The notes below the pieces were generated by a model. That model was not told the DNA's origin. It saw nothing but the letters and a program-made list of their open reading frames with translations, and did not search any database. A stretch of 64,000 bases of DNA from Eledone cirrhosa (Eukaryota). The position numbers were made by a program, and so were the translations under genes. Location: positions 1-64,000 of the forward strand of contig CAXHJY010000868.1 in NCBI GenBank assembly GCA_964016885.1. Reading direction: 5' to 3'. How positions within the stretch are numbered: the first letter of the stretch is position 1; the number at the start of each line of letters is the position of its first letter. Shown here in pieces: positions 28,812 to 64,000 of this stretch.

Positions 28812-28852
<41 letters not shown>

Positions 28853-32424: not shown

Positions 32425-32512
32425 CAGGGCTGCGGAGTCGGCCAAAAATTGACTGGCTCCAACTCAGGATCCGATATTCCCTTATTTCCTAAATTTCAGC
32501 TCCGCAGCTCTG
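32425..32512. mobile_element. hAT-like MITE
   Basis: TIRs cagggctgcggag / ctccgcagctctg, with 8-bp flanks gtattata / ttattata (one mismatch). Confidence 0.7.
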
Positions 32513-42308: not shown

Positions 42309-42569
42309 TAATTTTAAAAATGGGATCTTCAACATCAACTCTTATAGAAAATAAGAGAAAGTCATTGAATCAGGAGATTGTAAATCTCCTGAAGAAATAT
42401 CCAAAAGGTATTAAAAAATCAAATTTTTGGAATGTTGTGAACCATAATATAAAAGAAGTTGAATCAAATATAAGTTACGGTGTGACAAATATGGACGAAT
42501 TGTTTGACATTTATAAAAATCTTGAAATTGTCTCAAAGGATAATATTTCATATGTGAAGTTAAAACCAG
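42309..42569 (+). CDS. LOTUS/OST-HTH-like exon, copy 1 (diverged; candidate start ATG at 42320, MGSSTS...)
   Basis: Acceptor tttttcag ends at 42308 and donor CCAG|gtttgt follows 42569. The exon is 261 nt, phase 1-1, with an open frame. The protein LNQEIVNLLKKYPKGI...FW...SYGVTNMDELFDIY..L..V....YVKL fits the LOTUS helix-helix-YG-helix-strand pattern. Confidence 0.75.
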
Positions 42570-44029
42570 GTTTGTAAATATTTATTACTTTCCATATGTT
42601 ACTTTTATAAGAAGAGAAGTTCCAACTATGTGGCTAAAACATACAACAACAATACCATTCATTGTTAATTTCACCATTTATATTTTATGTATTAAATATT
42701 TGTTATTTTCGTAAAAGGACAGAAATTTGGGGTAAGGGGTAAAATTGACTCTTATCATCCTCAATATATTACCAGTACTTTATTTTATTGACCTCTCACT
42801 GATGAAAGACAAAGTTGACCTTGGTGGGAGTTGAACTGTGAACATAAAATTTGAAAGTAAATACCACAAAGTATTTATTCCAATGCGCTAATGACACTGC
42901 CAATGACCTGCCATGACAATTTCTGTAATAATTGTTTCTATTTTTGGTACAAGCTGAGCAATTTAAAGGGAAAAAGAAAGTCAATTAAATTGACTCCATT
43001 GCATTACTGGTATTTTATATAATTCAAACTCTTAATGATGAAAAAGTTAAACTAACACTGGCAGAATTTAAAGTAAGAACATGAAAGTCTGTAACTATAT
43101 ACCACAAAGTACATTGTTAAATTCACTACCAATACTGCCAATCCACCACCCTAGGGTCTCTAATAATAATAATAATTTTTATTTTGTAACAAGACCACCT
43201 ATTTTAGTAAGAATTGTAGTTGATCAATTTCAATACTTCACTAATACTTATTTTATCAACCCTGAAATACTGAAAGATAAAATCAATCTGCACATATTTA
43301 AATACAGAATAAAAATAACATACAACTAAATACTCTACCAATTCTGCTATTCCCCATCATATGATAATAATTATATCAATGATATCTTATTAATATAGCA
43401 AATGAGAGTTTTATAGGCGAATAATGAGAATCAAACAAACTCTATATAATTGTTTCTACTTTTGGCACAAGGCCAGCAATTATCTCAGTGTATTACTGGT
43501 ACTTTATTTTATCGACCCCGTAAGGATGAAAGGCAAAGTTAATCTCGGCGGGATTTGAACTTAGAGCGTAAAGGGCCGTGACTCTATCCTGCAAAACATA
43601 GTGTCCGACTCTCTACTGATACTGCCAAATGTTGTCTAGTTCTTATTGCTGATTATGGCTGTAAAAGAATTAAACAAAAACTTCTGGACATGGAAGTGAA
43701 ACCTAGGATGAAGAGGTCTTAAAGTAAACTTAAGAGAGACCAATATTTTAGTATGTAAAGAAGAAGGCAGGACCTTGCCATAATTGTGGAAATATCTGTT
43801 CTTGATATGTAGAATATAAGAAGGTAAAATAGTATCTATATACCACAGAGGATGTTATCCAATGGTCTACCAACACTACCACTCCACCCCCTTGGGTCTC
43901 CAATAGTAATAATAGTGAAGAACAGATTGTATAATGTTCTATGGTAGCAAGACATGGGCCTTAAGTGACAAAGATTAACCATAGCTAGGTAGATATAAAT
44001 TAATAGAAATATTTTCTCATATTTTTCAG

Positions 44030-44290
44030 TAACATTTCAAATGGAAACTCCATTATTATGTGACATAGAAGAAAGAAGGATGTGGTTAAATAAGGAGATT
44101 GTAAATCTTTTGAAGACATATTCAAAAGGTATAGAAATATCTAATTTTTGGAATATTGTGAACCATTATATAAAAGGAGTTGAATCAAATGACAGTTATG
44201 GTGTGACAAATATGAACGAATTGTTTAAATATTATGAAAATCTTGAAATTGTCTCAGAGAATAATATTTCATATGTGAAATTAAAATCAG
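44030..44290 (+). CDS. LOTUS-like exon, copy 2
   Basis: tttttcag|TAACATTTCAAATG ... TCAG|gtttgt; 261 nt, phase 1-1, no internal stop. Confidence 0.72.
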
Positions 44291-45100
44291 GTTTGTAAAT
44301 ATTTATTATTTTCTATGTTATTTTATGAGAAGAAAAGTTCCAACTATGTGGCTAAAAAAACCCAGCAATGCCATTGATCGTTAATTTCATTTTTTATAAG
44401 AGGAATTTGTAGTTTCCTTGAAACATTTTGTATGGTATATAGAATTTGAAGTTTCAAACCTACATCAATGCGAAATAGATGGATAAAGAGGTTCCATGCA
44501 ACCAGATGTTATGTATTTTACCTGAATTTATTTATATATCCTGATACTTCGAGATTAAAATCTCATCTTCTGAGAAAAATAAAAGGGACTAATCCAGTGT
44601 TTGATGGAACAGGCTATACCTATGTATTAAATATTTCTAATTTTGGTAAAAACATAAATTTGCAGAAAAGGGTAAAGTTGACTATATGATCCTCAATATT
44701 TTACTGGTACTTTATTTTATTGAGCCTCAATGATGAAAGACAAAGTTGACCTTGGTGGGATTTGAACTCTGAACATAAAATGTTGAAAGTAAATACCACA
44801 AAGTATTTATTCCAATGCGCTAATGACCTGCCATGACAATTTCTGTAATAATTGTTTCTATTTTTGGTACAAGCTGAGCAATTTAAAGGGGAAAGAAAGT
44901 CAATTAAATTGACTCCAGTGCATTACTGGTATTGTATATAATTCAAACTCTTAATGATGAAAAAGTTAAATTTACACTGGCAGAATTTAAAGTAAGAACA
45001 TGAAAGTCTGTAACTACATACCACAAAGTACATTGTTAAATTCACTACCAATACTGCCAATCCACCACCCTAGGGTCTCTAATAATAATAATAATTTTTA

Positions 45101-45593
45101 GTAAAACCTACTACAGTCAGTAGGCATCTCTAACAAAATACACCCCGTCCCACCACCCCCACCCCACCCACACCGCCCCTTTCAATGTAAAGTTATGTTG
45201 GTGCCACAACATCCAGGCCGAAACAAATGAGATCGTGTAGGTGTCACGACAAAAAAAACACACAGTCCACGCTGTAATGTGACTGTGTAGGCAACACGGT
45301 AAAAACCTCCCAGTCCCACACTGTAAATGTGGTTGGTGTTAGGAAGGGCATCCAGCTGTAGAAAACCTGCCAGACAGTCCACGCTGTAATGTGGCCGTGT
45401 AGGCAACACGGTAAAAACCTCCCAGCCCCACACTGTAAATGTGGTTGGTGTTAGGAAGGGCAACCAACTGTAGAAAACACGCCAGTCAGTCCTATGCGAG
45501 CAAGACAACCACTCTTGCCTCAAGTGGGAAAACTCCCATCCAAACCCATGCAACCATGGAACACGGACGTTAAACGATGATGATGATGATGAT
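45101..45593 (+). mobile_element. Insertion unique to array unit 2, ending in a SINE-like 3' part with a (GAT)n tail
   Basis: Absent from other units. Contains a duplicated ggtgttaggaagggca.cc..ctgtagaaaac motif and ends ggacgttaaacgatgatgatgatgat. Confidence 0.75.
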
Positions 45594-46445
45594 TTGTAGT
45601 TGATCAATTTCAATACTTCACTAATACTTATTTTATCAACCCTGAAATACTGAAAGATAAAATCAATCTGTACATATTTAAATACAGAATAAAAATAACA
45701 TACAACTAAATACTCTACCAATTCTGCTATTCCCCATCATATGATAATAATTATATCAATGATATCTTATTAATATAGCAAATGAGAGTTTTATAGGCGA
45801 ATAATGAGAATCAAACAAACTATCTAGTCTATATAATTGTTTCTACTTTTGGCACAAGGCCAGCAATTATCTCAGTGTATTACTGGTACTTTATTTTATC
45901 GACCCCATAAGGATGAAAGGCAAAGGTAACCTCGGCGGGATTTGTATTCAGATCATAAAGGGCCGTAACACTTTGCTGCAAAGCTTGGCGTCTGACCCTC
46001 TACCGATACTTCCGAATCCATAGTATATAATTATAGTCTATATAATGTTGTCTAGTTCTTATTGCTGATTATGGCTGTAAAAGAATTAAACAAAAACTTC
46101 TGGACATGGAAGTGAAACCTAGGATGAAGAGGTCTTAAAGTAAACTTAAGAGAGACCAATATTTTAGTATGTAAAGAAGAAGGCAGGACCTTGCCATAAT
46201 TGTGGAAATATCTGTTCTTGATATGTAGAATATAAGAAGGTAAAATAGTATCTATATACCACAGAGGATGTTATCCAATGGTCTACCAACACTACCACTC
46301 CACCCCCTTGGGTCTCCAATAGTAATAATAGTGAAGAACAGATTGTATAATGTTCTATGGTAGCAAGACATGGACCTTAAGTGACAAAGATTAACCATAG
46401 CTAGGTAGATATAAATTAATAGAAATATTTTCTCATATTTTTCAG

Positions 46446-46706
46446 TAACATTTCAAATGGAAACTCCATCATCATGTGACATAGAAGAAAGAAGGATGTG
46501 GTTAAATAAGGAGATTGTAAATCTTCTGAAGACATATCCAAAAGGTATAGAAAAATCTAATTTTTGGAATGTTGTGAACTACAATATAGATGGAGTTGAA
46601 TCAAATGACAGTTATGGTGTGACAAATATGAACGAATTGTTTAAATATTATGAAAATCTTGAAGTTGTCTCAGAGAATAATATTTCATATGTGAAATTAA
46701 AATCAG
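46446..46706 (+). CDS. LOTUS-like exon, copy 3
   Basis: Same splice signals; 261 nt; protein identical to copies 4-8. Confidence 0.72.
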
Positions 46707-47790
46707 GTTTGTAAATATTTATTATTTTCTATGTTATTTTATAAGAAGAAAAGTTCCAACTATGTGGCTAAAAAAACCCAGCAATGCCATTGATCGTTAA
46801 TTTCATTTTTTATAAGAGGAATTTGTAGTTTCCTTGAAACATTTTGTATGGTATATAGAATTTGAAGTTTCAAACCTACATCAATGCGAAATAGATGGAT
46901 AAAGAGGTTCCATGCAACCAGATGTTATGTATTTTACCTGAATTTATTTATATGTCCTAATACTTCGAGATTAAAATCTCATCTTCTGAGAAAAATAAAA
47001 GGGACTAATCCAGTATTTGATGGAACAGGCTATACCTATGTATTAAATATTTCTAATTTTGGTTAAAACAGAAATTTGCAGAAAAGGGTAAAGTTGACTA
47101 TATGATCCTCAATACTTTATTTTATTGACCCCTCAATGATGAAAGACAAAGTTGACCTTGGTGGGATTTGAACTCTGAACATAAAATGTTGAAAGTAAAT
47201 ACCACAAAGTATTTATTCCAATGCGCTAATGACACTGCCAATGACCTGCCATGACAATTTCTGTAATAATTGTTTCTATTTTTGGTACAAGCTGAGCAAT
47301 TTAAAGGGAAAAAGAAAGTCAATTAAATTGACTCCATTGCATTACTGGTATTTTATATAATTCAAACTCTTAATGATGAAAAAGTTAAATTTACACTGGC
47401 AGAATTTAAAGTAAGAACATGAAAGTCTGTAACTACATACCACAAAGTACATTGTTAAATTCACTACCAATACTGCCAATCCACCACCCTAGGGTCTCTA
47501 ATAATAATAATAATTTTTATTTTGTAACAAGACCACCTATTTTAGTAAGAATTGTAGTTGATCAATTTCAATACTTCACTAATACTTATTTTATCAACCC
47601 TGAAATACTGAAAGATAAAATCAATCTGCACATATTTAAATACAGAATAAAAATAACATACAACTAAATACTCTACCAATTCTGCTATTCCCCATCATAT
47701 GATAATAATTATATCAATGATATCTTATTAATATAGCAAATGAGAGTTTTATAGGCGAATAATGAGAATCAAACAAACTGTCTAGTCTAT

Positions 47791-47971
47791 ATAATTGTTT
47801 CTACTTTTGGCACAAGGCCAGCAATTATCTCAGTGTATTACTGGTACTTTATTTTATCGACCCCATAAGGATGAAAGGCAAAGTTAACCTCGGCGGGATT
47901 TGTATTCAGATCATAAAGGGCCGTAACTCTTTGCTGCAAGGCATGGCGTCTGACCCTCTACCGATACTGCC
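47791..47971 (-). mobile_element. SINE (main family) carried in each array intron; representative copy
   Basis: Reverse complement of the 11145 family; recurs at 1968-bp steps. Confidence 0.85.
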
Positions 47972-48402
47972 GATCCATAGTATATAATTATAGTCTATAT
48001 AATGTTGTCTAGTTCTTATTGCTGATTATGGCTGTAAAAGAATTAAACAAAAACTTCTGGACATGGAAGTGAAACCTAGGATGAAGAGGTCTTAAAGTAA
48101 ACTTAAGAGAGACCAATATTTTAGTATGTAAAGAAGAAGGCAGGACCTTGCCATAATTGTGGAAATATCTGTTCTTGATATGTAGAATATAAGAAGGTAA
48201 AATAGTATCTATATACCACAGAGGATGTTATCCAATGGTCTACCAACACTACCACTCCACCCCCTTGGGTCTCCAATAGTAATAATAGTGAAGAACAGAT
48301 TGTATAATGTTCTATGGTAGCAAGACATGGGCCTTAAGTGACAAAGATTAACCATAGCTAGGTAGATATAAATTAATAGAAATATTTTCTCATATTTTTC
48401 AG

Positions 48403-48663
48403 TAACATTTCAAATGGAAACTCCATCATCATGTGACATAGAAGAAAGAAGGATGTGGTTAAATAAGGAGATTGTAAATCTTCTGAAGACATATCCAAAA
48501 GGTATAGAAAAATCTAATTTTTGGAATGTTGTGAACTACAATATAGATGGAGTTGAATCAAATGACAGTTATGGTGTGACAAATATGAACGAATTGTTTA
48601 AATATTATGAAAATCTTGAAGTTGTCTCAGAGAATAATATTTCATATGTGAAATTAAAATCAG
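48403..48663 (+). CDS. LOTUS-like exon, copy 4
   Basis: Same splice signals; 261 nt; phase 1-1. Confidence 0.72.
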
Positions 48664-50370
48664 GTTTGTAAATATTTATTATTTTCTATGTTATTTTATA
48701 AGAAGAAAAGTTCCAACTATGTGGCTAAAAAAACCCAGCAATGCCATTGATCGTTAATTTCATTTTTTATAAGAGGAATTTGTAGTTTCCTTGAAACATT
48801 TTGTATGGTATATAGAATTTGAAGTTTCAAACCTACATCAATGCGAAATAGATGGATAAAGAGGTTCCATGCAACCAGATGTTATGTATTTTACCTGAAT
48901 TTATTTATATGTCCTAATACTTCGAGATTAAAATCTCATCTTCTGAGAAAAATAAAAGGGACTAATCCAGTGTTTGATGGAACAGGCTATACCTATGTAT
49001 TAAATATTTCTAATGTTGGTTAAAACAGAAATTTGCAGAAAAGGGTAAAGTTGACTATATGATCCTCAATATTTTACTGGTACTTTATTTTATTGACCCC
49101 TCAATGATGAAAGACAAAGTTGACCTTGGTGGGATTTGAACTCTGAACATAAAATGTTGAAAGTAAATACCACAAAGTATTTATTCCAATGCGCTAATGA
49201 CACTGCCAATGACCTGCCATGACAATTTCTGTAATAATTGTTTCTATTTTTGGTACAAGCTGAGCAATTTAAAGGGAAAAAGAAAGTCAATTAAATTGAC
49301 TCCATTGCATTACTGGTATTTTATATAATTCAAACTCTTAATGATGAAAAAGTTAAATTTACACTGGCAGAATTTAAAGTAAGAACATGAAAGTCTGTAA
49401 CTACATACCACAAAGTACATTGTTAAATTCACTACCAATACTGCCAATCCACCACCCTAGGGTCTCTAATAATAATAATAATTTTTATTTTGTAACAAGA
49501 CCACCTATTTTAGTAAGAATTGTAGTTGATCAATTTCAATACTTCACTAATACTTATTTTATCAACCCTGAAATACTGAAAGATAAAATCAATCTGCACA
49601 TATTTAAATACAGAATAAAAATAACATACAACTAAATACTCTACCAATTCTGCTATTCCCCATCATATGATAATAATTATATCAATGATATCTTATTAAT
49701 ATAGCAAATGAGAGTTTTATAGGCGAATAATGAGAATCAAACAAACTGTCTAGTCTATATAATTGTTTCTACTTTTGGCACAAGGCCAGCAATTATCTCA
49801 GTGTATTACTGGTACTTTATTTTATCGACCCCATAAGGATGAAAGGCAAAGTTAACCTCGGCGGGATTTGTATTCAGATCATAAAGGGCCGTAACTCTTT
49901 GCTGCAAGGCATGGCGTCTGACCCTCTACCGATACTGCCGATCCATAGTATATAATTATAGTCTATATAATGTTGTCTAGTTCTTATTGCTGATTATGGC
50001 TGTAAAAGAATTAAACAAAAACTTCTGGACATGGAAGTGAAACCTAGGATGAAGAGGTCTTAAAGTAAACTTAAGAGAGACCAATATTTTAGTATGTAAA
50101 GAAGAAGGCAGGACCTTGCCATAATTGTGGAAATATCTGTTCTTGATATGTAGAATATAAGAAGGTAAAATAGTATCTATATACCACAGAGGATGTTATC
50201 CAATGGTCTACCAACACTACCACTCCACCCCCTTGGGTCTCCAATAGTAATAATAGTGAAGAACAGATTGTATAATGTTCTATGGTAGCAAGACATGGGC
50301 CTTAAGTGACAAAGATTAACCATAGCTAGGTAGATATAAATTAATAGAAATATTTTCTCATATTTTTCAG

Positions 50371-50631
50371 TAACATTTCAAATGGAAACTCCATCATCAT
50401 GTGACATAGAAGAAAGAAGGATGTGGTTAAATAAGGAGATTGTAAATCTTCTGAAGACATATCCAAAAGGTATAGAAAAATCTAATTTTTGGAATGTTGT
50501 GAACTACAATATAGATGGAGTTGAATCAAATGACAGTTATGGTGTGACAAATATGAACGAATTGTTTAAATATTATGAAAATCTTGAAGTTGTCTCAGAG
50601 AATAATATTTCATATGTGAAATTAAAATCAG
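50371..50631 (+). CDS. LOTUS-like exon, copy 5
   Basis: Same splice signals; 1968 bp after copy 4. Confidence 0.72.
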
Positions 50632-52338
50632 GTTTGTAAATATTTATTATTTTCTATGTTATTTTATAAGAAGAAAAGTTCCAACTATGTGGCTAAAAAA
50701 ACCCAGCAATGCCATTGATCGTTAATTTCATTTTTTATAAGAGGAATTTGTAGTTTCCTTGAAACATTTTGTATGGTATATAGAATTTGAAGTTTCAAAC
50801 CTACATCAATGCGAAATAGATGGATAAAGAGGTTCCATGCAACCAGATGTTATGTATTTTACCTGAATTTATTTATATGTCCTAATACTTCGAGATTAAA
50901 ATCTCATCTTCTGAGAAAAATAAAAGGGACTAATCCAGTGTTTGATGGAACAGGCTATACCTATGTATTAAATATTTCTAATTTTGGTTAAAACAGAAAT
51001 TTGCAGAAAAGGGTAAAGTTGACTATATGATCCTCAATATTTTACTGGTACTTTATTTTATTGACCCCTCAATGATGAAAGACAAAGTTGACCTTGGTGG
51101 GATTTGAACTCTGAACATAAAATGTTGAAAGTAAATACCACAAAGTATTTATTCCAATGCGCTAATGACACTGCCAATGACCTGCCATGACAATTTCTGT
51201 AATAATTGTTTCTATTTTTGGTACAAGCTGAGCAATTTAAAGGGAAAAAGAAAGTCAATTAAATTGACTCCATTGCATTACTGGTATTTTATATAATTCA
51301 AACTCTTAATGATGAAAAAGTTAAATTTACACTGGCAGAATTTAAAGTAAGAACATGAAAGTCTGTAACTACATACCACAAAGTACATTGTTAAATTCAC
51401 TACCAATACTGCCAATCCACCACCCTAGGGTCTCTAATAATAATAATAATTTTTATTTTGTAACAAGACCACCTATTTTAGTAAGAATTGTAGTTGATCA
51501 ATTTCAATACTTCACTAATACTTATTTTATCAACCCTGAAATACTGAAAGATAAAATCAATCTGCACATATTTAAATACAGAATAAAAATAACATACAAC
51601 TAAATACTCTACCAATTCTGCTATTCCCCATCATATGATAATAATTATATCAATGATATCTTATTAATATAGCAAATGAGAGTTTTATAGGCGAATAATG
51701 AGAATCAAACAAACTGTCTAGTCTATATAATTGTTTCTACTTTTGGCACAAGGCCAGCAATTATCCCAGTGTATTACTGGTACTTTATTTTATCGACCCC
51801 ATAAGGATGAAAGGCAAAGTTAACCTCGGCGGGATTTGTATTCAGATCATAAAGGGCCGTAACTCTTTGCTGCAAGGCATGGCGTCTGACCCTCTACCGA
51901 TACTGCCGATCCATAGTATATAATTATAGTCTATATAATGTTGTCTAGTTCTTATTGCTGATTATGGCTGTAAAAGAATTAAACAAAAACTTCTGGACAT
52001 GGAAGTGAAACCTAGGATGAAGAGGTCTTAAAGTAAACTTAAGAGAGACCAATATTTTAGTATGTAAAGAAGAAGGCAGGACCTTGCCATAATTGTGGAA
52101 ATATCTGTTCTTGATATGTAGAATATAAGAAGGTAAAATAGTATCTATATACCACAGAGGATGTTATCCAATGGTCTACCAACACTACCACTCCACCCCC
52201 TTGGGTCTCCAATAGTAATAATAGTGAAGAACAGATTGTATAATGTTCTATGGTAGCAAGACATGGGCCTTAAGTGACAAAGATTAACCATAGCTAGGTA
52301 GATATAAATTAATAGAAATATTTTCTCATATTTTTCAG

Positions 52339-52599
52339 TAACATTTCAAATGGAAACTCCATCATCATGTGACATAGAAGAAAGAAGGATGTGGTTAAAT
52401 AAGGAGATTGTAAATCTTCTGAAGACATATCCAAAAGGTATAGAAAAATCTAATTTTTGGAATGTTGTGAACTACAATATAGATGGAGTTGAATCAAATG
52501 ACAGTTATGGTGTGACAAATATGAACGAATTGTTTAAATATTATGAAAATCTTGAAGTTGTCTCAGAGAATAATATTTCATATGTGAAATTAAAATCAG
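52339..52599 (+). CDS. LOTUS-like exon, copy 6
   Basis: Same splice signals; 1968 bp after copy 5. Confidence 0.72.
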
Positions 52600-54306
52600 G
52601 TTTGTAAATATTTATTATTTTCTATGTTATTTTATAAGAAGAAAAGTTCCAACTATGTGGCTAAAAAAACCCAGCAATGCCATTGATCGTTAATTTCATT
52701 TTTTATAAGAGGAATTTGTAGTTTCCTTGAAACATTTTGTATGGTATATAGAATTTGAAGTTTCAAACCTACATCAATGCGAAATAGATGGATAAAGAGG
52801 TTCCATGCAACCAGATGTTATGTATTTTACCTGAATTTATTTATATGTCCTAATACTTCGAGATTAAAATCTCATCTTCTGAGAAAAATAAAAGGGACTA
52901 ATCCAGTGTTTGATGGAACAGGCTATACCTATGTATTAAATATTTCTAATTTTGGTTAAAACAGAAATTTGCAGAAAAGGGTAAAGTTGACTATATGATC
53001 CTCAATATTTTACTGGTACTTTATTTTATTGACCCCTCAATGATGAAAGACAAAGTTGACCTTGGTGGAATTTGAACTCTGAACATAAAATGTTGAAAGT
53101 AAATACCACAAAGTATTTATTCCAATGCGCTAATGACACTGCCAATGACCTGCCATGACAATTTCTGTAATAATTGTTTCTATTTTTGGTACAAGCTGAG
53201 CAATTTAAAGGGAAAAAGAAAGTCAATTAAATTGACTCCATTGCATTACTGGTATTTTATATAATTCAAACTCTTAATGATGAAAAAGTTAAATTTACAC
53301 TGGCAGAATTTAAAGTAAGAACATGAAAGTCTGTAACTACATACCACAAAGTACATTGTTAAATTCACTACCAATACTGCCAATCCACCACCCTAGGGTC
53401 TCTAATAATAATAATAATTTTTATTTTGTAACAAGACCACCTATTTTAGTAAGAATTGTAGTTGATCAATTTCAATACTTCACTAATACTTATTTTATCA
53501 ACCCTGAAATACTGAAAGATAAAATCAATCTGCACATATTTAAATACAGAATAAAAATAACATACAACTAAATACTCTACCAATTCTGCTATTCCCCATC
53601 ATATGATAATAATTATATCAATGATATCTTATTAATATAGCAAATGAGAGTTTTATAGGCGAATAATGAGAATCAAACAAACTGTCTAGTCTATATAATT
53701 GTTTCTACTTTTGGCACAAGGCCAGCAATTATCTCAGTGTATTACTGGTACTTTATTTTATCGACCCCATAAGGATGAAAGGCAAAGTTAACCTCGGCGG
53801 GATTTGTATTCAGATCATAAAGGGCCGTAACTCTTTGCTGCAAGGCATGGCGTCTGACCCTCTACCGATACTGCCGATCCATAGTATATAATTATAGTCT
53901 ATATAATGTTGTCTAGTTCTTATTGCTGATTATGGCTGTAAAAGAATTAAACAAAAACTTCTGGACATGGAAGTGAAACCTAGGATGAAGAGGTCTTAAA
54001 GTAAACTTAAGAGAGACCAATATTTTAGTATGTAAAGAAGAAGGCAGGACCTTGCCATAATTGTGGAAATATCTGTTCTTGATATGTAGAATATAAGAAG
54101 GTAAAATAGTATCTATATACCACAGAGGATGTTATCCAATGGTCTACCAACACTACCACTCCACCCCCTTGGGTCTCCAATAGTAATAATAGTGAAGAAC
54201 AGATTGTATAATGTTCTATGGTAGCAAGACATGGGCCTTAAGTGACAAAGATTAACCATAGCTAGGTAGATATAAATTAATAGAAATATTTTCTCATATT
54301 TTTCAG

Positions 54307-54567
54307 TAACATTTCAAATGGAAACTCCATCATCATGTGACATAGAAGAAAGAAGGATGTGGTTAAATAAGGAGATTGTAAATCTTCTGAAGACATATCC
54401 AAAAGGTATAGAAAAATCTAATTTTTGGAATGTTGTGAACTACAATATAGATGGAGTTGAATCAAATGACAGTTATGGTGTGACAAATATGAACGAATTG
54501 TTTAAATATTATGAAAATCTTGAAGTTGTCTCAGAGAATAATATTTCATATGTGAAATTAAAATCAG
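54307..54567 (+). CDS. LOTUS-like exon, copy 7
   Basis: Same splice signals; 1968 bp after copy 6. Confidence 0.72.
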
Positions 54568-56274
54568 GTTTGTAAATATTTATTATTTTCTATGTTATTT
54601 TATAAGAAGAAAAGTTCCAACTATGTGGCTAAAAAAACCCAGCAATGCCATTGATCGTTAATTTCATTTTTTATAAGAGGAATTTGTAGTTTCCTTGAAA
54701 CATTTTGTATGGTATATAGAATTTGAAGTTTCAAACCTACATCAATGCGAAATAGATGGATAAAGAGGTTCCATGCAACCAGATGTTATGTATTTTACCT
54801 GAATTTATTTATATGTCCTAATACTTCGAGATTAAAATCTCATCTTCTGAGAAAAATAAAAGGGACTAATCCAGTGTTTGATGGAACAGGCTATACCTAT
54901 GTATTAAATATTTCTAATGTTGGTTAAAACAGAAATTTGCAGAAAAGGGTAAAGTTGACTATATGATCCTCAATATTTTACTGGTACTTTATTTTATTGA
55001 CCCCTCAATGATGAAAGACAAAGTTGACCTTGGTGGGATTTGAACTCTGAACATAAAATGTTGAAAGTAAATACCACAAAGTATTTATTCCAATGCGCTA
55101 ATGACACTGCCAATGACCTGCCATGACAATTTCTGTAATAATTGTTTCTATTTTTGGTACAAGCTGAGCAATTTAAAGGGAAAAAGAAAGTCAATTAAAT
55201 TGACTCCATTGCATTACTGGTATTTTATATAATTCAAACTCTTAATGATGAAAAAGTTAAATTTACACTGGCAGAATTTAAAGTAAGAACATGAAAGTCT
55301 GTAACTACATACCACAAAGTACATTGTTAAATTCACTACCAATACTGCCAATCCACCACCCTAGGGTCTCTAATAATAATAATAATTTTTATTTTGTAAC
55401 AAGACCACCTATTTTAGTAAGAATTGTAGTTGATCAATTTCAATACTTCACTAATACTTATTTTATCAACCCTGAAATACTGAAAGATAAAATCAATCTG
55501 CACATATTTAAATACAGAATAAAAATAACATACAACTAAATACTCTACCAATTCTGCTATTCCCCATCATATGATAATAATTATATCAATGATATCTTAT
55601 TAATATAGCAAATGAGAGTTTTATAGGCGAATAATGAGAATCAAACAAACTGTCTAGTCTATATAATTGTTTCTACTTTTGGCACAAGGCCAGCAATTAT
55701 CTCAGTGTATTACTGGTACTTTATTTTATCGACCCCATAAGGATGAAAGGCAAAGTTAACCTCGGCGGGATTTGTATTCAGATCATAAAGGGCCGTAACT
55801 CTTTGCTGCAAGGCATGGCGTCTGACCCTCTACCGATACTGCCGATCCATAGTATATAATTATAGTCTATATAATGTTGTCTAGTTCTTATTGCTGATTA
55901 TGGCTGTAAAAGAATTAAACAAAAACTTCTGGACATGGAAGTGAAACCTAGGATGAAGAGGTCTTAAAGTAAACTTAAGAGAGACCAATATTTTAGTATG
56001 TAAAGAAGAAGGCAGGACCTTGCCATAATTGTGGAAATATCTGTTCTTGATATGTAGAATATAAGAAGGTAAAATAGTATCTATATACCACAGAGGATGT
56101 TATCCAATGGTCTACCAACACTACCACTCCACCCCCTTGGGTCTCCAATAGTAATAATAGTGAAGAACAGATTGTATAATGTTCTATGGTAGCAAGACAT
56201 GGGCCTTAAGTGACAAAGATTAACCATAGCTAGGTAGATATAAATTAATAGAAATATTTTCTCATATTTTTCAG

Positions 56275-56535
56275 TAACATTTCAAATGGAAACTCCATCA
56301 TCATGTGACATAGAAGAAAGAAGGATGTGGTTAAATAAGGAGATTGTAAATCTTCTGAAGACATATCCAAAAGGTATAGAAAAATCTAATTTTTGGAATG
56401 TTGTGAACTACAATATAGATGGAGTTGAATCAAATGACAGTTATGGTGTGACAAATATGAACGAATTGTTTAAATATTATGAAAATCTTGAAGTTGTCTC
56501 AGAGAATAATATTTCATATGTGAAATTAAAATCAG
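56275..56535 (+). CDS. LOTUS-like exon, copy 8
   Basis: Same splice signals; 1968 bp after copy 7. Confidence 0.72.
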
Positions 56536-58243
56536 GTTTGTAAATATTTATTATTTTCTATGTTATTTTATAAGAAGAAAAGTTCCAACTATGTGGCTAA
56601 AAAAACCCAGCAATGCCATTGATCGTTAATTTCATTTTTTATAAGAGGAATTTGTAGTTTCCTTGAAACATTTTGTATGGTATATAGAATTTGAAGTTTC
56701 AAACCTACATCAATGCGAAATAGATGGATAAAGAGGTTCCATGCAACCAGATGTTATGTATTTTACCTGAATTTATTTATATGTCCTAATACTTCGAGAT
56801 TAAAATCTCATCTTCTGAGAAAAATAAAAGGGACTAATCCAGTGTTTGATGGAACAGGCTATACCTATGTATTAAATATTTCTAATTTTGGTTAAAACAG
56901 AAATTTGCAGAAAAGGGTAAAGTTGACTATATGATCCTCAATATTTTACTGGTACTTTATTTTATTGACCCCTCAATGATGAAAGACAAAGTTGACCTTG
57001 GTGGGATTTGAACTCTGAACATAAAATGTTGAAAGTAAATACCACAAAGTATTTATTCCAATGCGCTAATGACACTGCCAATGACCTGCCATGACAATTT
57101 CTGTAATAATTGTTTCTATTTTTGGTACAAGCTGAGCAATTTAAAGGGAAAAAGAAAGTCAATTAAATTGACTCCATTGCATTACTGGTATTTTATATAA
57201 TTCAAACTCTTAATGATGAAAAAGTTAAATTTACACTGGCAGAATTTAAAGTAAGAACATGAAAGTCTGTAACTACATACCACAAAGTACATTGTTAAAT
57301 TCACTACCAATACTGCCAATCCACCACCCTAGGGTCTCTAATAATAATAATAATTTTTATTTTGTAACAAGACCACCTATTTTAGTAAGAATTGTAGTTG
57401 ATCAATTTCAATACTTCACTAATACTTATTTTATCAACCCTGAAATACTGAAAGATAAAATCAATCTGCACATATTTAAATACAGAATAAAAATAACATA
57501 CAACTAAATACTCTACCAATTCTGCTTTTCCCCATCATATGATAATAATTATATCAATGATATCTTATTAATATAGCAAATGAGAGTTTTATAGGCGAAT
57601 AATGAGAATCAAACAAACTATCTAGTCTATATAATTGTTTCTACTTTTGGCACAAGGCCAGCAATTATCCCAGTGTATTACTGGTACTTTATTTTATCGA
57701 CCCCGTAAGGATGAAAGGCAAAGTTAATCTCGGCGGGATTTGAATTCAGATCATAAAGGGCCGTAACACTTTGCTGCAAAGCATGGCGTCTGACCCTCTA
57801 CCGATACTTCCGAATCCATAGTATATAATTATAGTCTATATAATGTTGTCTAGTTCTTATTGCTGATTATGGCTGTAAAAGAATTAAACAAAAACTTCTG
57901 GACATGGAAGTGAAACCTAGGATGAAGAGGTCTTAAAGTAAACTTAAGAGAGACCAATATTTTAGTATGTAAAGAAGAAGGCAGGACCTTGCCATAATTG
58001 TGGAAATATCTGTTCTTGATATGTAGAATATAAGAAGGTAAAATAGTATCTATATACCACAGAGGATGTTATCCAATGGTCTACCAACACTACCACTCCA
58101 CCCCCTTGGGTCTCCAATAGTAATAATAGTGAAGAACAGATTGTATAATGTTCTATGGTAGCAAGACATGGGCCTTAAGTGACAAAGATTAACCATAGCT
58201 AGGTAGATATAAATTAATAGAAATATTTTCTCATATTTTTCAG

Positions 58244-58504
58244 TAACATTTCAAATGGAAACTCCATCATCATGTGACATAGAAGAAAGAAGGATGTGGT
58301 TAAATCAGGAGATTGTAAATCTTTTGAAGACATATCCAAAAGGTATAGAAAAATCTATTTTTTGGGATGTTGTGAACCATAATATAGATGGAGTTGAACC
58401 AAATCACAGATATGGTGTTAAGAATCTAAAGGAATTGTTTGACATTTATGAAAATCTTGAAATTGTCTCAGAGAATAATTTTTCGTATGTGAAATTAAAA
58501 CCAG
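58244..58504 (+). CDS. LOTUS-like exon, copy 9 (diverged 3' half)
   Basis: Acceptor tttttcag and donor CCAG|gtttgt at 58504/58505; 261 nt. The intronic TAA after the donor is lost, which explains the longer 150-aa ORF call. Confidence 0.75.
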
Positions 58505-58770
58505 GTTTGTTAACATTTATTACTTTCCATGTTACTTTTATACGAAGAAAAGTTCCAACTATGTGGCTAAAAAAAACAGCAATGCCATTGATCGTTAATT
58601 TCATTTTTTATAAGAGGATTTTGGCCTACCAACACTGCCACTCCACCACCCTTGGGTCTCCAATAGTAATAATAGTAAAGAACAGATTGTATAATGTTCT
58701 ATGGTAGCAAGACATGGGCCTTAATTTAGGTATATATAAATTAATAGAAATATTTTCTCATATTTTTCAG

Positions 58771-59028
58771 TAACATTTCAAATGGAGACTCCAGCATCAC
58801 TGATAGAAGAGAAGAGAAAGTCATTAAATCAGCAGATTGTAAAACTCCTGAAGATATATCCAAAAGGTATAAAAAAACGCCTCTTTTGGAATACTGTTAT
58901 GCAAAAAATAAAAGGAGTTGAATCAAATGACAGTTATGGTGTGACAAATATGAACGAATTATTTAAATATTATGAAAATCTTAAAGTTGTCTCAGAGAAT
59001 AATATTTCATATGTGAAATTAAAATCAG
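58771..59028 (+). CDS. LOTUS-like exon, copy 10 (258 nt, diverged 5' half)
   Basis: Acceptor ends at 58770 and donor TCAG|gtttgt follows 59028. It is one codon shorter than the others, with the frame preserved. Confidence 0.75.
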
Positions 59029-59588
59029 GTTTGTAAATATTTATTACTTTCCATATGTTACTTTTATACGAAGAAAACTTCCAACTATGTGGCTAAAAAA
59101 CAACAACAATACCATTGATTGTTAATTTCACTTTTCTATATTTTATGTATTAAATATTTGTTATTTTCATAAAAGGACAGAAATATGGGGTAAGGGGTAA
59201 AGTTGACTATTTCATCCTCAATATTTTACTGCTACTTTATGTTATTGACCCCTCATTGACGAAAGACAAAGTTGACCTTGGTGGGATCTTAACTCTGAAC
59301 ATAAAAAGTTGAAAGTAAATACCACAAAGTATTTATTCCAATGCGCTAATGATACTGCCAATCACCTGCCATGACATTTTATGTAATAATAAAAATGATC
59401 TCTTTTGAAAAGGCACAATTGAATTCACTACATAGTAGAATAAATGGTGAAGTTGTTGCTGTCAGGATTTGATAAGGAGGGGAAACAGACAACTGTATGA
59501 CATTAATTAACTCAATTGCTTTTCCATTTCTTCTAACTGTGGGCTATAATATTAATAACAATTTCTTACATTGATACTAGATCACCTA

Positions 59589-59675
59589 TCATATGTGAAG
59601 TTAAAATCAAGTTTGTAAATATTTGCTACTTTCTATATGTTACTTTTGTGAGGATAAAAATCCCAACTGTGTGGG
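59589..59675 (+). pseudogene. Relic 3' end of an additional LOTUS-like exon plus the start of its intron
   Basis: tcatatgtgaagttaaaatcaagtttgtaaatatttgctactttct...cccaactgtgtgg matches the exon end and downstream intron of the array units; the 5' part is missing. Confidence 0.7.
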
Positions 59676-59760
59676 TAAGATTTTTGCTTTGCTCAATTTG
59701 TGCATTTAGTTGACATATTTTTTTCCTTTCATTGAACTGTATTTTTATTTTTATTTCCAG

Positions 59761-61109
59761 GTAATAAAACCAGAATGGTAAATAAACCCAGTTTTGAAGA
59801 TCTTAAAAAGGTCATATGTGAAGTTCTTGATAAACACAGAAGTAAAATAAAACGTGAACATTTTTGGAATAAAGTGGCTGAGAGGCAAGGACATGTTATC
59901 AACCCTAAAGATTATGGTTTCAATAATTTATATGAATTACTGAAACAACTTTCTGATGTGCTGATAGAGGTGGCTGAAAAGAATGAACTATATGTAAAAA
60001 AGAAAACTTCAAGTGATTCCAATAAACCATCTGCTGAGAAAAGCTCATCCTACTTAGGAGACAACATATATAATTTTCCATCACTTAATGAAACTATACA
60101 AAGTGACCCATCAAAACCATCTCTAGTTGAAATTAGACAAAGATTCTGTGACATTGTTGTGAACTCACCCCAGGGTTTATCACTGCAGCTATTGATGGAA
60201 TTCTATAATAGAAAATATCAAAAGTCACCATTTAACTTTCAAGATTATAATGTCAGTAATTCTGAAGAATTTTTTAAGTTGCCTGAATTTCGATGTTTTA
60301 ATGTTTTAATACAGAACAATACAATAATGGTTTATTTAAAAGGACACAATTCTTCCCAAAATATGTTTCCGTTAGTTAATCAAATGCAAGCTCCTAAATG
60401 GGGTGAACCAGCATTCCCCCTCAGGCAACAACCTGTTCCTAATTTACAACATGTTACTGATAGTTTTCATCTTGCTCCTTTTTCCAAACTCCCTCCACCA
60501 AAAACAAATGAAAAAGAAATTGTAATACCTCCCTTAAATATTGCTCCTGGGGAGACACTGTCTAAAGAACAGCTTGATAAAATAGCCAAAGAATGTATTG
60601 AAATACTTGCTGATAATAAGGAATATGTATCTGCTCAAGCTATTGAAAATCTTTTCCTTAAACGTCTTAGAAAGAGAAATATGCGTGAAGTTGGTATCCG
60701 TAATTTAGATTATTTGCCTTCAGTTCATGAGCATAACCGTATGGCATCTAAAGTAAATGCTTATATTCAAGCCTTTGTGACAGTTCGGTCTGTATGCACA
60801 CTGAAAGAACTAGAAGAATGTGTTACACTTTATGTGAACGAAAGCAATTCCTTTCAAAGTTTAAAACTGGGTCCTTTTCATAAGATGCAAATTATTTTTG
60901 ATTTGTTTAAATTTCCTCCTGGTGAAGAAAGCTACCCAGACCTTACTACAATGGATATTTTAGATAATATAAGAAATTTCCTTAATGAGAATAATTGGTA
61001 TAAGAAACACGAAATGCCAGAAGTTATGTCTTATTTGACAAAAGCTTTTTATTACAATGATCCATTTCAACTTGGGATTCGCTTGAAAAGCCTCCCACTT
61101 GCTATTGGG
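59761..61109 (+). CDS. Large exon of a NO VEIN (NOV)-like protein: two LOTUS-like domains, a Pro-rich linker and a NOV N-terminal-like region
   Basis: Strong polypyrimidine acceptor (ttttatttttttatttccag, phase 1) and donor GGG|gtaagg (phase 0); 452-aa ORF. EYVSAQAIE...LPSVHEHNRMASKVNAYIQAFVTVRSVCTLKELE...FQSLKLGPFHKMQIIFDLF resembles, from memory, the NOV N-terminal motif VSAW...KINAFIHCFVGVRRITSLYDLE...FEELELGPL. Confidence 0.85.
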
Positions 61110-61216
61110 GTAAGGATATCTTTGTTTATTTAAATATTGGAATTGTTTTACCTATTTTTATTCCAGTGTTAATTCTTTCTATTTTAAATACATTTATACA
61201 ATGTCATCTGTTACAG

Positions 61217-61670
61217 GTCTTAAAACGTGCTCAAAAAGATGATTCAGCCCTTACCAGGAAAGTCTTTGATGATATGAAGTTCAAATTAACTGAAGAAATA
61301 CAAAGCGCTTTCAATAAATTCCGTGGCTATATTCTTGCAACAAAACAAAATGAAACATATTTGAAGAAGCACTATGCTAAAATGTCAGCTGATGCTGCTC
61401 TAAAAGAGATATTTGAACGGCTGTGCTTGTTGCTTGAAAATTATGAACCTAGAACTATATTTGAACAGAAACAAAAAAGAAAATTTATAGAGATTTCTAA
61501 TAATTTCTTTCAGCAAATAAGTAGTCATGATCTAGCTAAGACTGTGTTTCATGTTGCTATTTGTGTCACTACTACTGAACTACAAGCAATTACCCTGGAA
61601 TTCTTAAAGCCAAGATCTCAGCCCTCAACTGATCACTCTAACAAAGTTAAAATTCCTCCTCCTCGAAAAG
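61217..61670 (+). CDS. Next coding exon of the NOV-like gene (helical region)
   Basis: A 107-nt intron (61110-61216, gtaagg...ttacag) joins in phase 0 (LPLAIG|VLKRAQ). Donor AAAG|gtaaga at 61671 (phase 1). The gene continues past the window. Confidence 0.85.
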
Positions 61671-62239
61671 GTAAGATTTTGAAATATGATTTTAATAGGG
61701 CAACTTCTAAATTTTTAACTATTGTTATTGTTAGGTGCCTATAGCCCTGATTCAACTATATACTACTTCTATATATTAACTGTGGACTATTTTCCTACTA
61801 AAATTGAGAGGAGAGTTGGCTGTCTAGATAGAATACTAGACAACTAGGTAAGAGATTGTTTGCATCTTGGCATTGTGTCCACTACAAAAACTCTGATGTA
61901 TTTCTGCTTGAAATTCTACAAACTCACACAATAAAATGAGTTATCTTTTGCCTTGTGTCAAAGAAGCCTTTTAAAACATTTATTGATAAACATCTTGTGG
62001 ATAAACATGTCCTAATGATTCAATTTTAACAATTTCTATGCAGTTTTTAGGAGATATAATAAATGCTGTAGAAATAATTTTGTTTGCTTCAGAATGTAAT
62101 ATATAATTTGTTTTATAAAACCTGTTCTTAAAATGTAACGGAAACAAAAAATAATATTGATGTAGAAAACCAGCAGTATGAAATATGAATGCATACAACA
62201 AACAAGAAATTAAATATTAAGGTAAAAATAAAAAACGGT

Positions 62240-62570
62240 GGCATGTACCCCATCACAGTAGGTAATGTCTTCTGGAGGCTTGCAACTAAGATCATCTGCA
62301 AGTCTATTGCACCAGAGATAGGTGTGGAACTCAGCCCAGTGCAGCTGGGGGTCGGTGTGGCCAGCAGGTGCGAGGGACCTGCCCACACTGCTAAACAGTT
62401 CATTCCAAACTCTCTTCCCAAGCCGGTGCCAATTGATCCTAGGATCTCATTGTCAAACTTGACATGAGAAATGCCTTCAATTGGTTGCGCCTTGCCTCAG
62501 CCGTGCCTTGTCTACCAACTCACTGGCCTACCTGCTATATGGGTCCCCAAGCATGCTCCTCACTGCATAC
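62240..62570 (+). mobile_element. CRE/NeSL-like RT N-terminal fragment
   Basis: PITVGNVFWRLATK...SPVQLGVGV...CEG..H, then KLDMRNAFN. Confidence 0.75.
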
Positions 62571-62727
62571 AACAATTACTCTTTAATTGGTATATCCAGT
62601 GTTTCATATAGCTCATTTAATATATAAATATTAGCTAGACAATGGTGTATTTACAAAACACAGTAGGTGTTGTAGGAAAGAAGTATATTTTTTTTAATGA
62701 TTTGCCCTATCTCTATTCAATTTTAGA

Positions 62728-64000
62728 GTCCTGAAAGCCCAGTGATATTTATATTATGGCTTCAATCTCAGGATAAAGTGGGAAGCATTGGTGCATAAGG
62801 ATGTCAGGACAAAATATGCAGATACTATTGCATTCAAATTCATAGAACTCCCTGAGCAAACTGAGGACGTTGGGACAGAGTGGAGATTGTTCAGTACAGC
62901 AGTGTCTGCTTCAGCTGTTAAATGCTGCGGGTGAAAGAGGCTTGGTGTGATGTCGGATGGCAGGAAGACTCTTTGGTTCAATCAAGAAGTCAAAGATGCC
63001 ACCCAAGAAAAGAAGAAGGCTTACAAAGCTTAACTTGGAAGTAAGTTAAGTTGGAATCTGACTTCAGATCAGCAAATAAAGTGTTCTAGCAGACCATCCA
63101 CCAACTTCATATTAAGAAGCCCTCCTCCACACCTGCTATCAAGAACACGTCTGGGGTTCTCATCTCTTCAGATAGGTGCATCCTCGCGAGGTGGAGATAA
63201 TACTTTGCTGATCTCCTAAACCTGATCACAACAGCATCTTTGGATGTACACAAGGAGCATCTGGGAACATGACTAATCTCTCAGAGGCTGAGGTCACAAG
63301 AGCAGTTAAAGAGCTCAAATGTGGCAAAGCTGCTGGAGAAGATGAAATCTGGCCTGGGGTGTTAAAAGCCTTAACTAAAGAAGGTATTTTGTGTTTGACT
63401 CCTTTGTGCTAGGTGGCCTGGATCTCTGGAAAGACACCTAAGCAATTGGGAGTCTATGCAAAATGTCTTGCAAAGAGATTCAGGGAGATTGTCGAGTCCA
63501 AGCTAGCTGATAAACAGTGTGGTTTTCACTCAGGACAGCAGAGCCAACTAAATATTCACACTGCAGCAAGTATTCAACAAATTATTGGAGTATTGCCAAG
63601 AAGTATATTTTCTTTTGTCGACTTCGAGAAGGCATATGACCATGTTCCTCAGGACCTACTGTGGAAGGCTGTGCAGGAGTATGGGATTGATGGTCAGCTT
63701 CTTGCTGCCCTGATGTCTTTATATGAATGACCAAGTACTAGTGTTTGGATAAATAGTGCTAAATCGAAACCATTCAATGTGGGAGTCAGACTCCACCAAG
63801 GGTGCATACTGTCACCTCTCCTGTTTATTATTTACATGAACAGGATTGACATGCACAGCTGGGTTGGAAGTGGTATCACAACTGGCAGGTGTAAAATCAG
63901 TCAGCTGGAATTTGAAGATGACTTAACTTGACAGATGATCTTCAACTTGCACTTGATAGGTTTGATGCCAAGTGCTGCTTGGTTGGAATGAAAATCAGGG
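62728..64000 (+). mobile_element. Degenerate RTE-clade LINE in the NOV-like intron
   Basis: GKAAGEDEI, QCGFHSG, FVDFEKAYDHVP, GLHQGCILSPLLF and FEDD-like motifs; many stops. Confidence 0.85.

Follow-up and report, generated by a model that had tools for sequence, protein, structure and literature searches.

LOTUS domains at the N-terminus of NO VEIN (NOV)/Tiamat proteins are already described in two October 2026 preprints. Section 20 of bioRxiv 10.64898/2026.09.30.754977 (the Tiamat preprint) counts them in 316 of 918 eukaryotic Tiamat/NOV proteins, some of these from molluscs, with four in zebrafish, and the consulted part of bioRxiv 10.64898/2026.09.30.755639 reports repeated LOTUS domains in fish NOV. 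Section 21 of the Tiamat preprint defines a Tiamat-like Type VIII-A as LOTUS plus ATPase with no PD-(D/E)xK nuclease. In the parts drawn on here, both preprints ask what animal NOV/Tiamat proteins do and what their LOTUS domains are for, and the former contains no assay of antiviral activity for a eukaryotic Tiamat. Elsewhere, the consulted sections of the literature describe LOTUS domains that bind G-rich or G-quadruplex RNA (PMC7498356), minimal LOTUS domains, without the C-terminal helix, that do not bind Vasa (PMC5458760, PMC7498356), and MARF1, in which minimal LOTUS domains follow one another in tandem, six of them in Drosophila (PMC6168497).

Here, we analysed a window of 64,000 nucleotides from Eledone cirrhosa, in which the ancestral first coding exon of such a gene, with one minimal LOTUS domain and symmetric phase 1, is present ten times, so that 12 LOTUS domains precede the NOV N-terminal region and the GHKL ATPase. 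An earlier note on this DNA had known of no described LOTUS-NOV architecture, a claim that the two preprints overturn. The gene family itself is known; what is unusual is the 12-LOTUS version and the fact that it occurs alongside a normal copy.

With LOTUS-bearing NO VEIN proteins (zebrafish wu:fj29h11; 'protein NO VEIN' of Octopus sinensis and O. vulgaris; Argonauta GAB1610178.1) this array copy shares the LOTUS domains, the NOV N-terminal motifs, the SACS-type GHKL ATPase and, by sequence homology, the middle region, but it has 12 LOTUS domains by tandem exon duplication and is predicted to lack NOV_C. Its ATPase exon matches PADLOC profiles of bacterial Tiamat (TmtA), an antiphage ATPase/DNase that has neither LOTUS domains nor a long N-terminus; the array copy is predicted to be without the nuclease. 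The LOTUS fold is shared with MARF1, TDRD5, TDRD7 and Oskar, but the repeats are not of the Vasa-binding extended class, and Pfam scans showed no NYN, RRM or Tudor domain. If the contigs C895, which holds the window, and C259 are one gene, the array copy has the Type VIII-A composition of LOTUS plus ATPase with PD-(D/E)xK absent; it differs in that the loss can be followed back to a decayed exon together with a stop, and in that the genome also has, and co-transcribes, a full-length paralogue that is 99% identical. The examined sections of the Tiamat preprint take up neither pairs of paralogues nor arrays of exons. OST-HTH without NOV_C annotation was found in 5 of 26 proteins listed, all from fish, some of them maybe partial models.

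RESULTS

The ten repeat exons are each bounded by tttttcag/TAA and CAG/gtttgt, and all are open and symmetric in phase 1, nine being 261 nt long and one 258 nt (Table 1). A recount of the exons reproduced the stop-free join reported earlier, which leads from the ATG at 42320 through the ten repeats and the two following exons over 4399 nt, or 1466 codons. This ATG has A at -3 and G at +4, and the Argonauta and O. vulgaris orthologues begin at the equivalent ATG. The gene model needs a 5'UTR exon upstream of repeat exon 1, where a search found none; a promoter candidate at 38000-38400 was dropped as a dispersed repeat of at least 40 copies.

Table 1. Features of the array-bearing gene in the window
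Feature	Position	Strand	Remark
Repeat exon 1, LOTUS 1	42309-42569	+	likely first coding exon, ATG at 42320
Repeat exon 2, LOTUS 2	44030-44290	+	12 nt away from exons 3-8
Repeat exon 3, LOTUS 3	46446-46706	+	first of six identical exons; modelled, LOTUS fold
Repeat exon 4	48403-48663	+	same sequence as exon 3
Repeat exon 5	50371-50631	+	same sequence as exon 3
Repeat exon 6	52339-52599	+	same sequence as exon 3
Repeat exon 7	54307-54567	+	same sequence as exon 3
Repeat exon 8	56275-56535	+	same sequence as exon 3; exon type in an X4 contig, 0 differences
Homogenised array core	46446-58243	+	six exon+intron units, 1957-1969 bp, 99-100% alike
Repeat exon 9, LOTUS 9	58244-58504	+	differs from exon 3 by 23 nt, none of them in the first 44
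Repeat exon 10, LOTUS 10	58771-59028	+	258 nt; mosaic: 5' divergent, 3' end near-identical to exon 3
Eleventh repeat exon, remnant with donor region and 3' end	59589-59667	+	90% like C8-type exon
Large exon 11	59761-61109	+	LOTUS 11, LOTUS 12 and NOV N-terminal helical motif
LOTUS 11 in exon 11	about 59796-59975	+
LOTUS 12 in exon 11	about 60129-60281	+
Conserved NOV N-terminal helical motif in exon 11	about 60525-61109	+
Exon 12, NOV N-terminal region	61217-61670	+	X4 contig departs exactly at its donor
Start of intron 12, with reverse-transcriptase fragments	61671-64000	+	5820 bp, against 1005 bp in the C8 copy

The ten exons comprise only five distinct sequences. Exons 3-8 are 100% identical; with introns counted, the four units of 1968 bp that begin at exons 4-7 are 0-2 nt apart. 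The open frames of the five distinct exons are not due to chance, since their at least 88 substitutions would be expected to create 6.3 stops under neutrality (P of no stop = 0.002). Exons 2-9 are predicted to be acidic (pI 4.7-5.1, net charge -3 to -4), exons 1 and 10 basic. As each repeat is frame-neutral and contains an in-frame ATG, it is possible that exon skipping varies the LOTUS valency; the earlier proposal of an RNA-sensing array of variable valency is weakened in its simple form, more RNA valency, by the acidic repeats.

Assignment of the repeats to LOTUS is based on the predicted fold and on a home-built profile, the Pfam scores being sub-threshold. The model of repeat exon 3 (pLDDT 90.7) shows a winged-helix LOTUS fold of three helices and a beta-hairpin, and among 48,161 chains its three best structural matches are all LOTUS domains: TDRD5 (Z 9.9, rmsd 2.1, 79 aligned), TDRD7 (Z 9.1) and MARF1 (Z 8.4). 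Foldseek placed the Oskar LOTUS first, but with E > 0.001. For OST-HTH (PF12872), none of the five distinct repeat exons reached the Pfam cut-off (best 12.1 against 23.8 bits, E 0.19), and the repeat exon of the canonical copy gave no match; a profile search of PDB sequences returned nothing at E < 0.2, with a TDRD7 LOTUS at E 1.1. With the home-built profile, each of the 12 modules gives a score (31.8-57.7 bits), including the two further domains that the earlier note had recognised at the start of the large exon, the only place where the Pfam cut-off was passed (LOTUS 11, 28.1 bits). A reading of the following NOV N-terminal motif as a further LOTUS domain found no support: it models well (pLDDT 95.8), yet its best Z is 5.4, with generic helical matches and at most 15 bits, and a fourth octopod 'LOTUS' proved to be profile drift into this motif.

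The repeat model ends in the beta-hairpin (strand 79-84), the next repeat following about 10 residues on, and has no C-terminal extension helix, although such a helix can be disordered when unbound according to the consulted part of PMC5458760. Because the modelled repeat corresponds to a minimal LOTUS, the Vasa/piRNA link suggested before is unlikely.

Exon 11 contains the conserved NOV N-terminal region. A homologue search with it gave 199 matches at E ≤ 0.001, the best, an Argonauta NO VEIN-like protein (E 1.9e-146), aligning to exon-11 residues about 250-449, in agreement with the proposed NOV-family membership; a length-limited search gave one weak match. From exon 11 onward the identity to the O. 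vulgaris protein is 77%. The gene runs past the window on C895, where an ATPase exon at 96729-97202 matches the PADLOC TmtA profile at 5e-28, this single exon scoring below the SACS cut-off. The E-x-x-x-N and G-x-G motifs are identical in the array copy, the canonical copy and O. vulgaris, and the downstream exons of the array copy encode, judged by sequence, an intact Tiamat/NOV GHKL ATPase. Sequence homologous to the middle TPR-like/Fold B/metalloprotease-like region is found on C895 and C259, which probably belong to one gene.

The canonical copy lies on the chromosome-scale scaffold C8, at 21.7 Mb, and has one such repeat exon, three LOTUS domains in total, and an intact PD-(D/E)xK nuclease. 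In a genome search, four coding probes from the stop and its surroundings each matched two places and no more, and both linker exons searched were single-copy. The array copy is spread over three unplaced contigs, C895, C259 and C206, which the assembly leaves unjoined; C895 terminates in a (TTC)n run, and the gene probably extends onto the other two. Probably, the three contigs form one gene with a product of about 3290 aa that ends at the start of a disordered linker, without the nuclease. Its about 3290 codons are free of stops across 37 exons, whose splice sites are canonical. Its 12 LOTUS domains compare with at most five among 194 fetched homologues and three in other octopods.

On C259, an in-frame stop follows 2424 open codons, with a second stop 9 codons later. 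The first stop sits where the last folded domain gives way to the linker; only beyond it do lesions accumulate. The nuclease exon (DUF3883/NOV_C) on C206 is frameshifted, with a 16-nt deletion at the E-x-K motif and further lesions, and only profile positions 1-47 of 91 are left, whereas the C8 copy scores 71.9 bits. Given the inferred contig join, an in-frame NOV_C/PD-(D/E)xK domain is therefore present in the C8 copy and absent from the array copy. Of the downstream exons anticipated by the earlier note, the GHKL/sacsin-type ATPase was recovered and the DUF3883/NOV_C exon turned out to be broken, so that the ATPase/nuclease-like effector finds no support for this copy: the assembly's only intact nuclease exon is on C8.

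Spliced sequence of both copies is present in X4, an RNA-like public run that is not on record as RNA, and the array copy is thus transcribed as far as this RNA-like run indicates. A contig with 0 differences leaves exon 12 at its donor with 25 extra letters, which end exactly at the point in exon 13 from which the two copies share a path; in this run, variant letters match the C8 copy at four of four listed sites. Another contig, of 291 nt (229 nt of it aligned, up to a 4-letter ambiguity), corresponds to one 261-nt repeat exon looped head-to-tail at k=31. From its length and geometry we infer repeat-to-repeat splicing, a joint that is absent from the joint table. In X4, no joint from any repeat exon to 59761 was seen, and exons 9 and 10 as well as most of exon 11 were without cover, for which contig filtering or bubble removal may account.

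DISCUSSION

Is the ten-exon array real, and does it belong to a separate gene? That the assembly has over-expanded a shorter array into the six identical units might be suspected from their distance of only 0-2 nt and from run X1, where the depth ratio is just about 4x (37-44 against 9.9-12.4, about 3.5-4.5x). In run X3, from the same sample, repeat-unit contigs have a depth of 88-113 and copy-specific contigs 15.8-17.2, a ratio of about 6-7x that agrees with the 5.8-7.5x expected, contig depth being no copy number in either run. Together with private differences among the units at three positions and at least five distinct exons that remain in any case, this makes over-expansion extremely improbable, and the array is probably not an assembly artefact. 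Alternatively, the copies could be two deeply diverged alleles that balancing selection maintains at one locus, a 3-LOTUS allele with the nuclease and a 12-LOTUS allele without it, the unplaced contigs being the retained haplotype. The synonymous divergence of about 1% in most exons, typical of heterozygosity, the one-to-one division of exons between the chromosome and the unplaced contigs and depths that fit roughly equal dosage speak for this. However, 21 kb align inside the gene and neither the 42 kb upstream nor the 105 kb downstream flank has a syntenic match in 400 kb of C8, an ORF in the C206 flank is single-copy in the assembly, and both copy types are present in samples S1 and S2, which may be one individual. 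Flank searches gave no placement for the array copy, their match lists being filled by repeats. We regard allelism as distinctly improbable. Our main account, which as a whole has about even odds, places in the window the 5' end of a second octopod NO VEIN/Tiamat gene copy that is not allelic to C8.

The divergence of the array copy from C8 is mosaic, with about 1% in the ATPase and 30-45% at synonymous sites in the repeat exon (dS 0.32-0.46, against 0.01 in exon 11), which suggests an old duplicate with gene conversion. Synonymous differences are heterogeneous along the gene (chi2 59, df 6, for blocks chosen post hoc), and exon 12 has 30 differing sites in its last 104 nt and 9 in its first 350 nt. 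We consider it likely that the duplicate is old, that the array arose via repeated unequal crossing-over, as its ends are diverged and its centre identical, and that gene conversion holds the ATPase core nearly identical to that of C8. Such a duplicate could also be relaxed or decaying: transcribed, its nuclease lost by drift, its identical exons a selectively neutral outcome of unequal crossing-over where repeats abound, and its protein, if made, adding nothing beyond the C8 protein. The overall pN/pS between the copies is 0.83, polarised amino-acid changes are in excess on the array copy (66 vs 32, twice as many derived residues), introns are inflated 3.3x (85 kb in total against 26 kb), the repeats have lost basic charge, and exons 3-8 are too young for selection to show. 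The long open frame with its canonical splice sites, the five stop-free distinct exons and a stop placed at a domain/linker boundary, with lesions only beyond it, render decay rather doubtful. Positive selection on LOTUS 11-12 was also considered, where the amino-acid excess (12 N, 2 S) falls short of significance (p 0.75). The original picture of a 12-LOTUS RNA sensor, active ATPase and nuclease in one chain, acting in piRNA or virus silencing, retains the confirmed LOTUS fold and ATPase; the contig bearing the stop is not joined to C895, and conversion or recombination with C8 could make such a gene. With the sole intact nuclease exon on C8 and repeats modelled without the Vasa-binding helix (PMC5458760, as consulted in part), it is very unlikely.

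Tentatively, we speculate that the array copy is a nuclease-less, multivalent targeting or regulatory subunit of the full-length C8 protein. The LOTUS array would dock the array-copy protein on G-rich RNA or on P-body-like RNP granules, and the near-identical ATPase domain would let it pair with the full-length C8 protein. This pairing could either recruit the C8 nuclease in trans or damp it, because GHL proteins are predicted to need nuclease dimers.

Several observations run against such a multivalent partner. The contigs C895, C259 and C206 are unjoined, the pN/pS and the excess of changes noted above fit relaxed selection, and the acidic amplified repeats are poor for RNA binding. The Tiamat preprint (bioRxiv 10.64898/2026.09.30.754977) proposes, in the part consulted, nuclease dimerisation as a constitutive dimer contact; if so, a nuclease-less subunit may pair poorly.

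A bolder and quite unlikely possibility is that an ancestral immune protein of the Tiamat type was split into a sensor-effector pair, an accordion-like LOTUS paralogue and a full-length nuclease partner, with the ATPase dimer interface held by gene conversion. The LOTUS exons would then expand, contract and splice to tune the recognised RNA or RNP, and pathogen pressure would make repeat number differ from one individual to the next.

Sensor/helper immune pairs show rapid copy-number change at the recognition end and effector loss. The array copy fits this pattern at its putative recognition end, and the immune hypothesis is therefore testable.

New here are the count of 12 LOTUS domains, the coexisting canonical C8 copy and, if the three contigs are one gene, an array copy that ends before the nuclease. 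Should the array copy merely be relaxed, it would still show clearly how a domain array grows when a symmetric exon is duplicated. For the NO VEIN/Tiamat family, the locus offers a natural experiment, in which two co-transcribed versions have near-identical ATPase cores and unlike ends, 3 against 12 LOTUS domains and a nuclease kept against one lost.

RESULTS

The repeat-exon array and its gene family

The exon model of the earlier note proved exact: read from the ATG at 42320, ten repeat exons join exons 11 and 12 in 4399 nt with zero stops. All repeat exons have the acceptor tttttcag before TAA and the donor gtttgt after CAG; nine measure 261 nt and one 258 nt. Five distinct sequences occur among them. 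Exons 3-8 share one, in exon-plus-intron units of 1957-1969 bp that are 99-100% alike, and exons 1, 9 and 10 at the array edges are diverged and partly mosaic. Repeated unequal crossing-over would be the expected source of such an identical centre with diverged ends. The five distinct exons are at least 88 substitutions apart. Simulated with the observed spectrum, that many changes would bring in 6.3 stops, and the probability of no stop is 0.002, so selection has kept the reading frame. In two DNA-like read runs, which may stem from the source sample of the assembly, the depth of the repeat unit was ~6-7x (X3, matching the assembly) and ~4x (X1), supporting several copies.

Exon 11 has 199 homologues, the closest being an Argonauta 'protein NO VEIN-like' with OST-HTH, SACS and NOV_C, in keeping with the proposed NOV family; this match points to an octopod as the source of the window. 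The window is the start of an unplaced 119-kb contig (C895), along which the exons run on through the GHKL ATPase that the earlier note had suggested looking for; the ATPase exon matches Tiamat TmtA (E 5e-28). The NOV N-terminal motif was modelled as a confident all-helical fold (pLDDT 95.8) whose first three helices are HTH-like; among solved structures none clearly resembles it (best Z 5.4).

Coordinates of the features (window positions unless prefixed by the assembly, G000)
Position	Feature	Observation
5973-9934, 11650-19000, 62189-64000	Broken LINE-type elements	Pieces of endonuclease and reverse transcriptase; long CA-rich satellite tracts
27557-32782	Blocks of 1.3 and 2.0 kb, upstream of the array	97-98% alike to G000:C259:4187-7586, downstream of the stop
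29318-29797	Open reading frame	Lysine/arginine-rich repeats; no Pfam match
42309-59028	Ten repeat exons	
56303-56531	291-nt contig of X4	0 differences
56438-56552	Contig of X5 on a repeat exon	Letters mostly C8-type
59589-59667	Remnant of an eleventh repeat exon's end	
59761-61109	Exon 11	
60525-61109	NOV N-terminal motif	
61217-61670	Exon 12	
61537-61670	Contig of X4	0 differences
61567-61665	3' end of exon 12	Divergent island between the copies, 30 differences in 104 nt; adjoining exons 99-100% alike
G000:C895:83553-92791	Long tandem minisatellite in an array-copy intron	Unit translates to a 21-residue repeat; absent from the C8 intron
G000:C895:114435 and C8 equivalent	GC-AG intron donor	Common to both copies
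G000:C206:11892-12524 (-)	Single-copy 211-codon open frame	2.8 kb past the decayed nuclease exon; no Pfam match

The blocks common to the window and contig C259 are probably a mobile element, or possibly the trace of a shared neighbourhood; the LINE fragments and CA-rich satellites are ordinary repeats.

Fold and class of the repeat

The Pfam OST-HTH cut-off is passed only by the first domain of exon 11. The LOTUS identity proposed for the repeats was upheld by an AlphaFold2 model (pLDDT 90.7, 8-sequence alignment), the three top structural matches of which, among 48,161 chains, are all LOTUS domains (TDRD5, Z 9.9; TDRD7, Z 9.1; MARF1, Z 8.4); Foldseek put the Oskar LOTUS at the top, with E above 0.001. 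Because the model lacks a C-terminal helix, the repeat falls into the minimal LOTUS class, which is reported to bind G-quadruplex RNA and not Vasa (PMC7498356, PMC5458760). Good RNA binding by the amplified unit is not to be assumed, since the domains of exons 2-9 are acidic (pI 4.7-5.1), whereas those of exons 1 and 10 are basic and those of the orthologues range from neutral to basic. By a profile built from N-terminal hits, the array copy has 12 LOTUS domains, while O. vulgaris, O. sinensis and Argonauta have 3 each. Of 200 fetched proteins, a non-exhaustive sample with many fragments or isoforms, 194 bear the NOV N-terminal motif, and these 194 have 0-5 (five in 2, four in 11).

A second copy with an intact nuclease

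Each of four coding probes found exactly two genomic places. One is a complete copy on the 60.6-Mb scaffold C8, with one repeat exon followed by 31 exons that stay open for 2796 codons, nuclease intact. The C8 repeat exon is 67-73% identical to orthologues and the array exons 42-63%; judged by sequence, the C8 type is the ancestral one, in agreement with the letters in X5, a run of another species.

The second exon set is colinear and non-overlapping across C895, which ends in a (TTC)n run, and two further unplaced contigs, C259 and C206, and we infer that the three carry one gene. So read, the gene has 2424 open codons from exon 11 on, its ATPase motifs match those of C8 exactly, and it stops at the start of the disordered linker ahead of the nuclease. 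Three linker exons were not found on the contigs checked, and two of the three are single-copy genome-wide. On C206, the nuclease exon has lost 16 nt at its E-x-K motif and bears further lesions after that. On this reading the predicted product is ~3290 aa long with 12 LOTUS domains and no nuclease, and the earlier idea of an effector in the same chain as the array is not sustained. Counted on the alignment, 46 nt separate the stop from the next donor, a distance under the usual limit of 50-55 nt for nonsense-mediated decay if the next junction is the last.

Expression

No run is recorded as RNA; X4 (sample S2) was classed as RNA-like by its behaviour, and unique intron bins covered in X1 and X3 are uncovered in it. 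Its contig at the end of exon 12 carries 25 extra letters, which is what splicing to exon 13, the place where the sequences of the copies merge, would give. This contig matches the array copy and its variant letters are those of C8 at 4/4 listed sites, so both copies are transcribed. The 291-nt contig is as long as a single 261-nt exon would be if looped head-to-tail at k=31, begins at offset 28, the would-be loop entry of exon 2, and ends at the 4-letter ambiguity of the repeat-to-repeat joint. Its length and ends support repeat-to-repeat splicing; single-exon back-splicing would look alike. No joint from a repeat exon to exon 11 was seen in X4.

DISCUSSION

Are the two copies paralogues or alleles? 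Over 21 kb of the gene the copies can be aligned at >= 94%. Their divergence is a mosaic: pS is ~0.01 for exon 11, exon 34 and the ATPase exons but reaches 0.13 in exon 12 and ~0.10 in exons 35-37 (chi2 59, df 6, for blocks picked post hoc), and dS of the repeat exon is 0.32-0.46. Introns total 85 kb in the array copy against 26 kb in C8, neither flank of the array copy matches 400 kb of C8 except via repeats, and the divergent islands hold derived residues in both copies. On these comparisons, the best fit is an old duplicate whose core has undergone gene conversion; deeply diverged alleles are less likely. A purely adaptive reading of this duplicate is weakened by an overall pN/pS of 0.83 and by the 66/98 polarised changes that fall on the array copy. 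In exon 12, 13/16 polarised amino-acid changes fall on the array copy.

The feature is real, but its architecture is already known, contrary to the earlier supposition: the Tiamat preprint (bioRxiv 10.64898/2026.09.30.754977) reports LOTUS in 316/918 eukaryotic Tiamat proteins, molluscs included, with four in zebrafish, and names a nuclease-less LOTUS type, VIII-A. A second preprint (bioRxiv 10.64898/2026.09.30.755639) describes fish NOV with repeated LOTUS and shows that plant NOV plays a part in virus interaction. Five fish NOV-like proteins (P0191, with five LOTUS, P0192, P0195, P0197 and P0182) have OST-HTH and no NOV_C annotation; they could be incomplete gene models or additional forms that lack the nuclease. 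The accessible text of the Tiamat preprint does not mention octopus, cephalopod or paralog, and the literature searched contained no octopod NOV or LOTUS exon array, although preprint supplements may list higher LOTUS counts. New are the size of the array, its mode of growth and the way in which a nuclease-less copy with 12 LOTUS domains is paired with a full-length copy that has 3.

Because the Tiamat preprint predicts ATPase and nuclease dimers, and P-bodies for LOTUS-bearing homologues, and remarks that effectors may come in trans, we propose that the product would serve as a multivalent targeting or regulatory subunit. The array would dock this subunit on RNA or RNP granules, the near-identical ATPase would pair it with the full-length protein, and this pairing would recruit or damp the nuclease.
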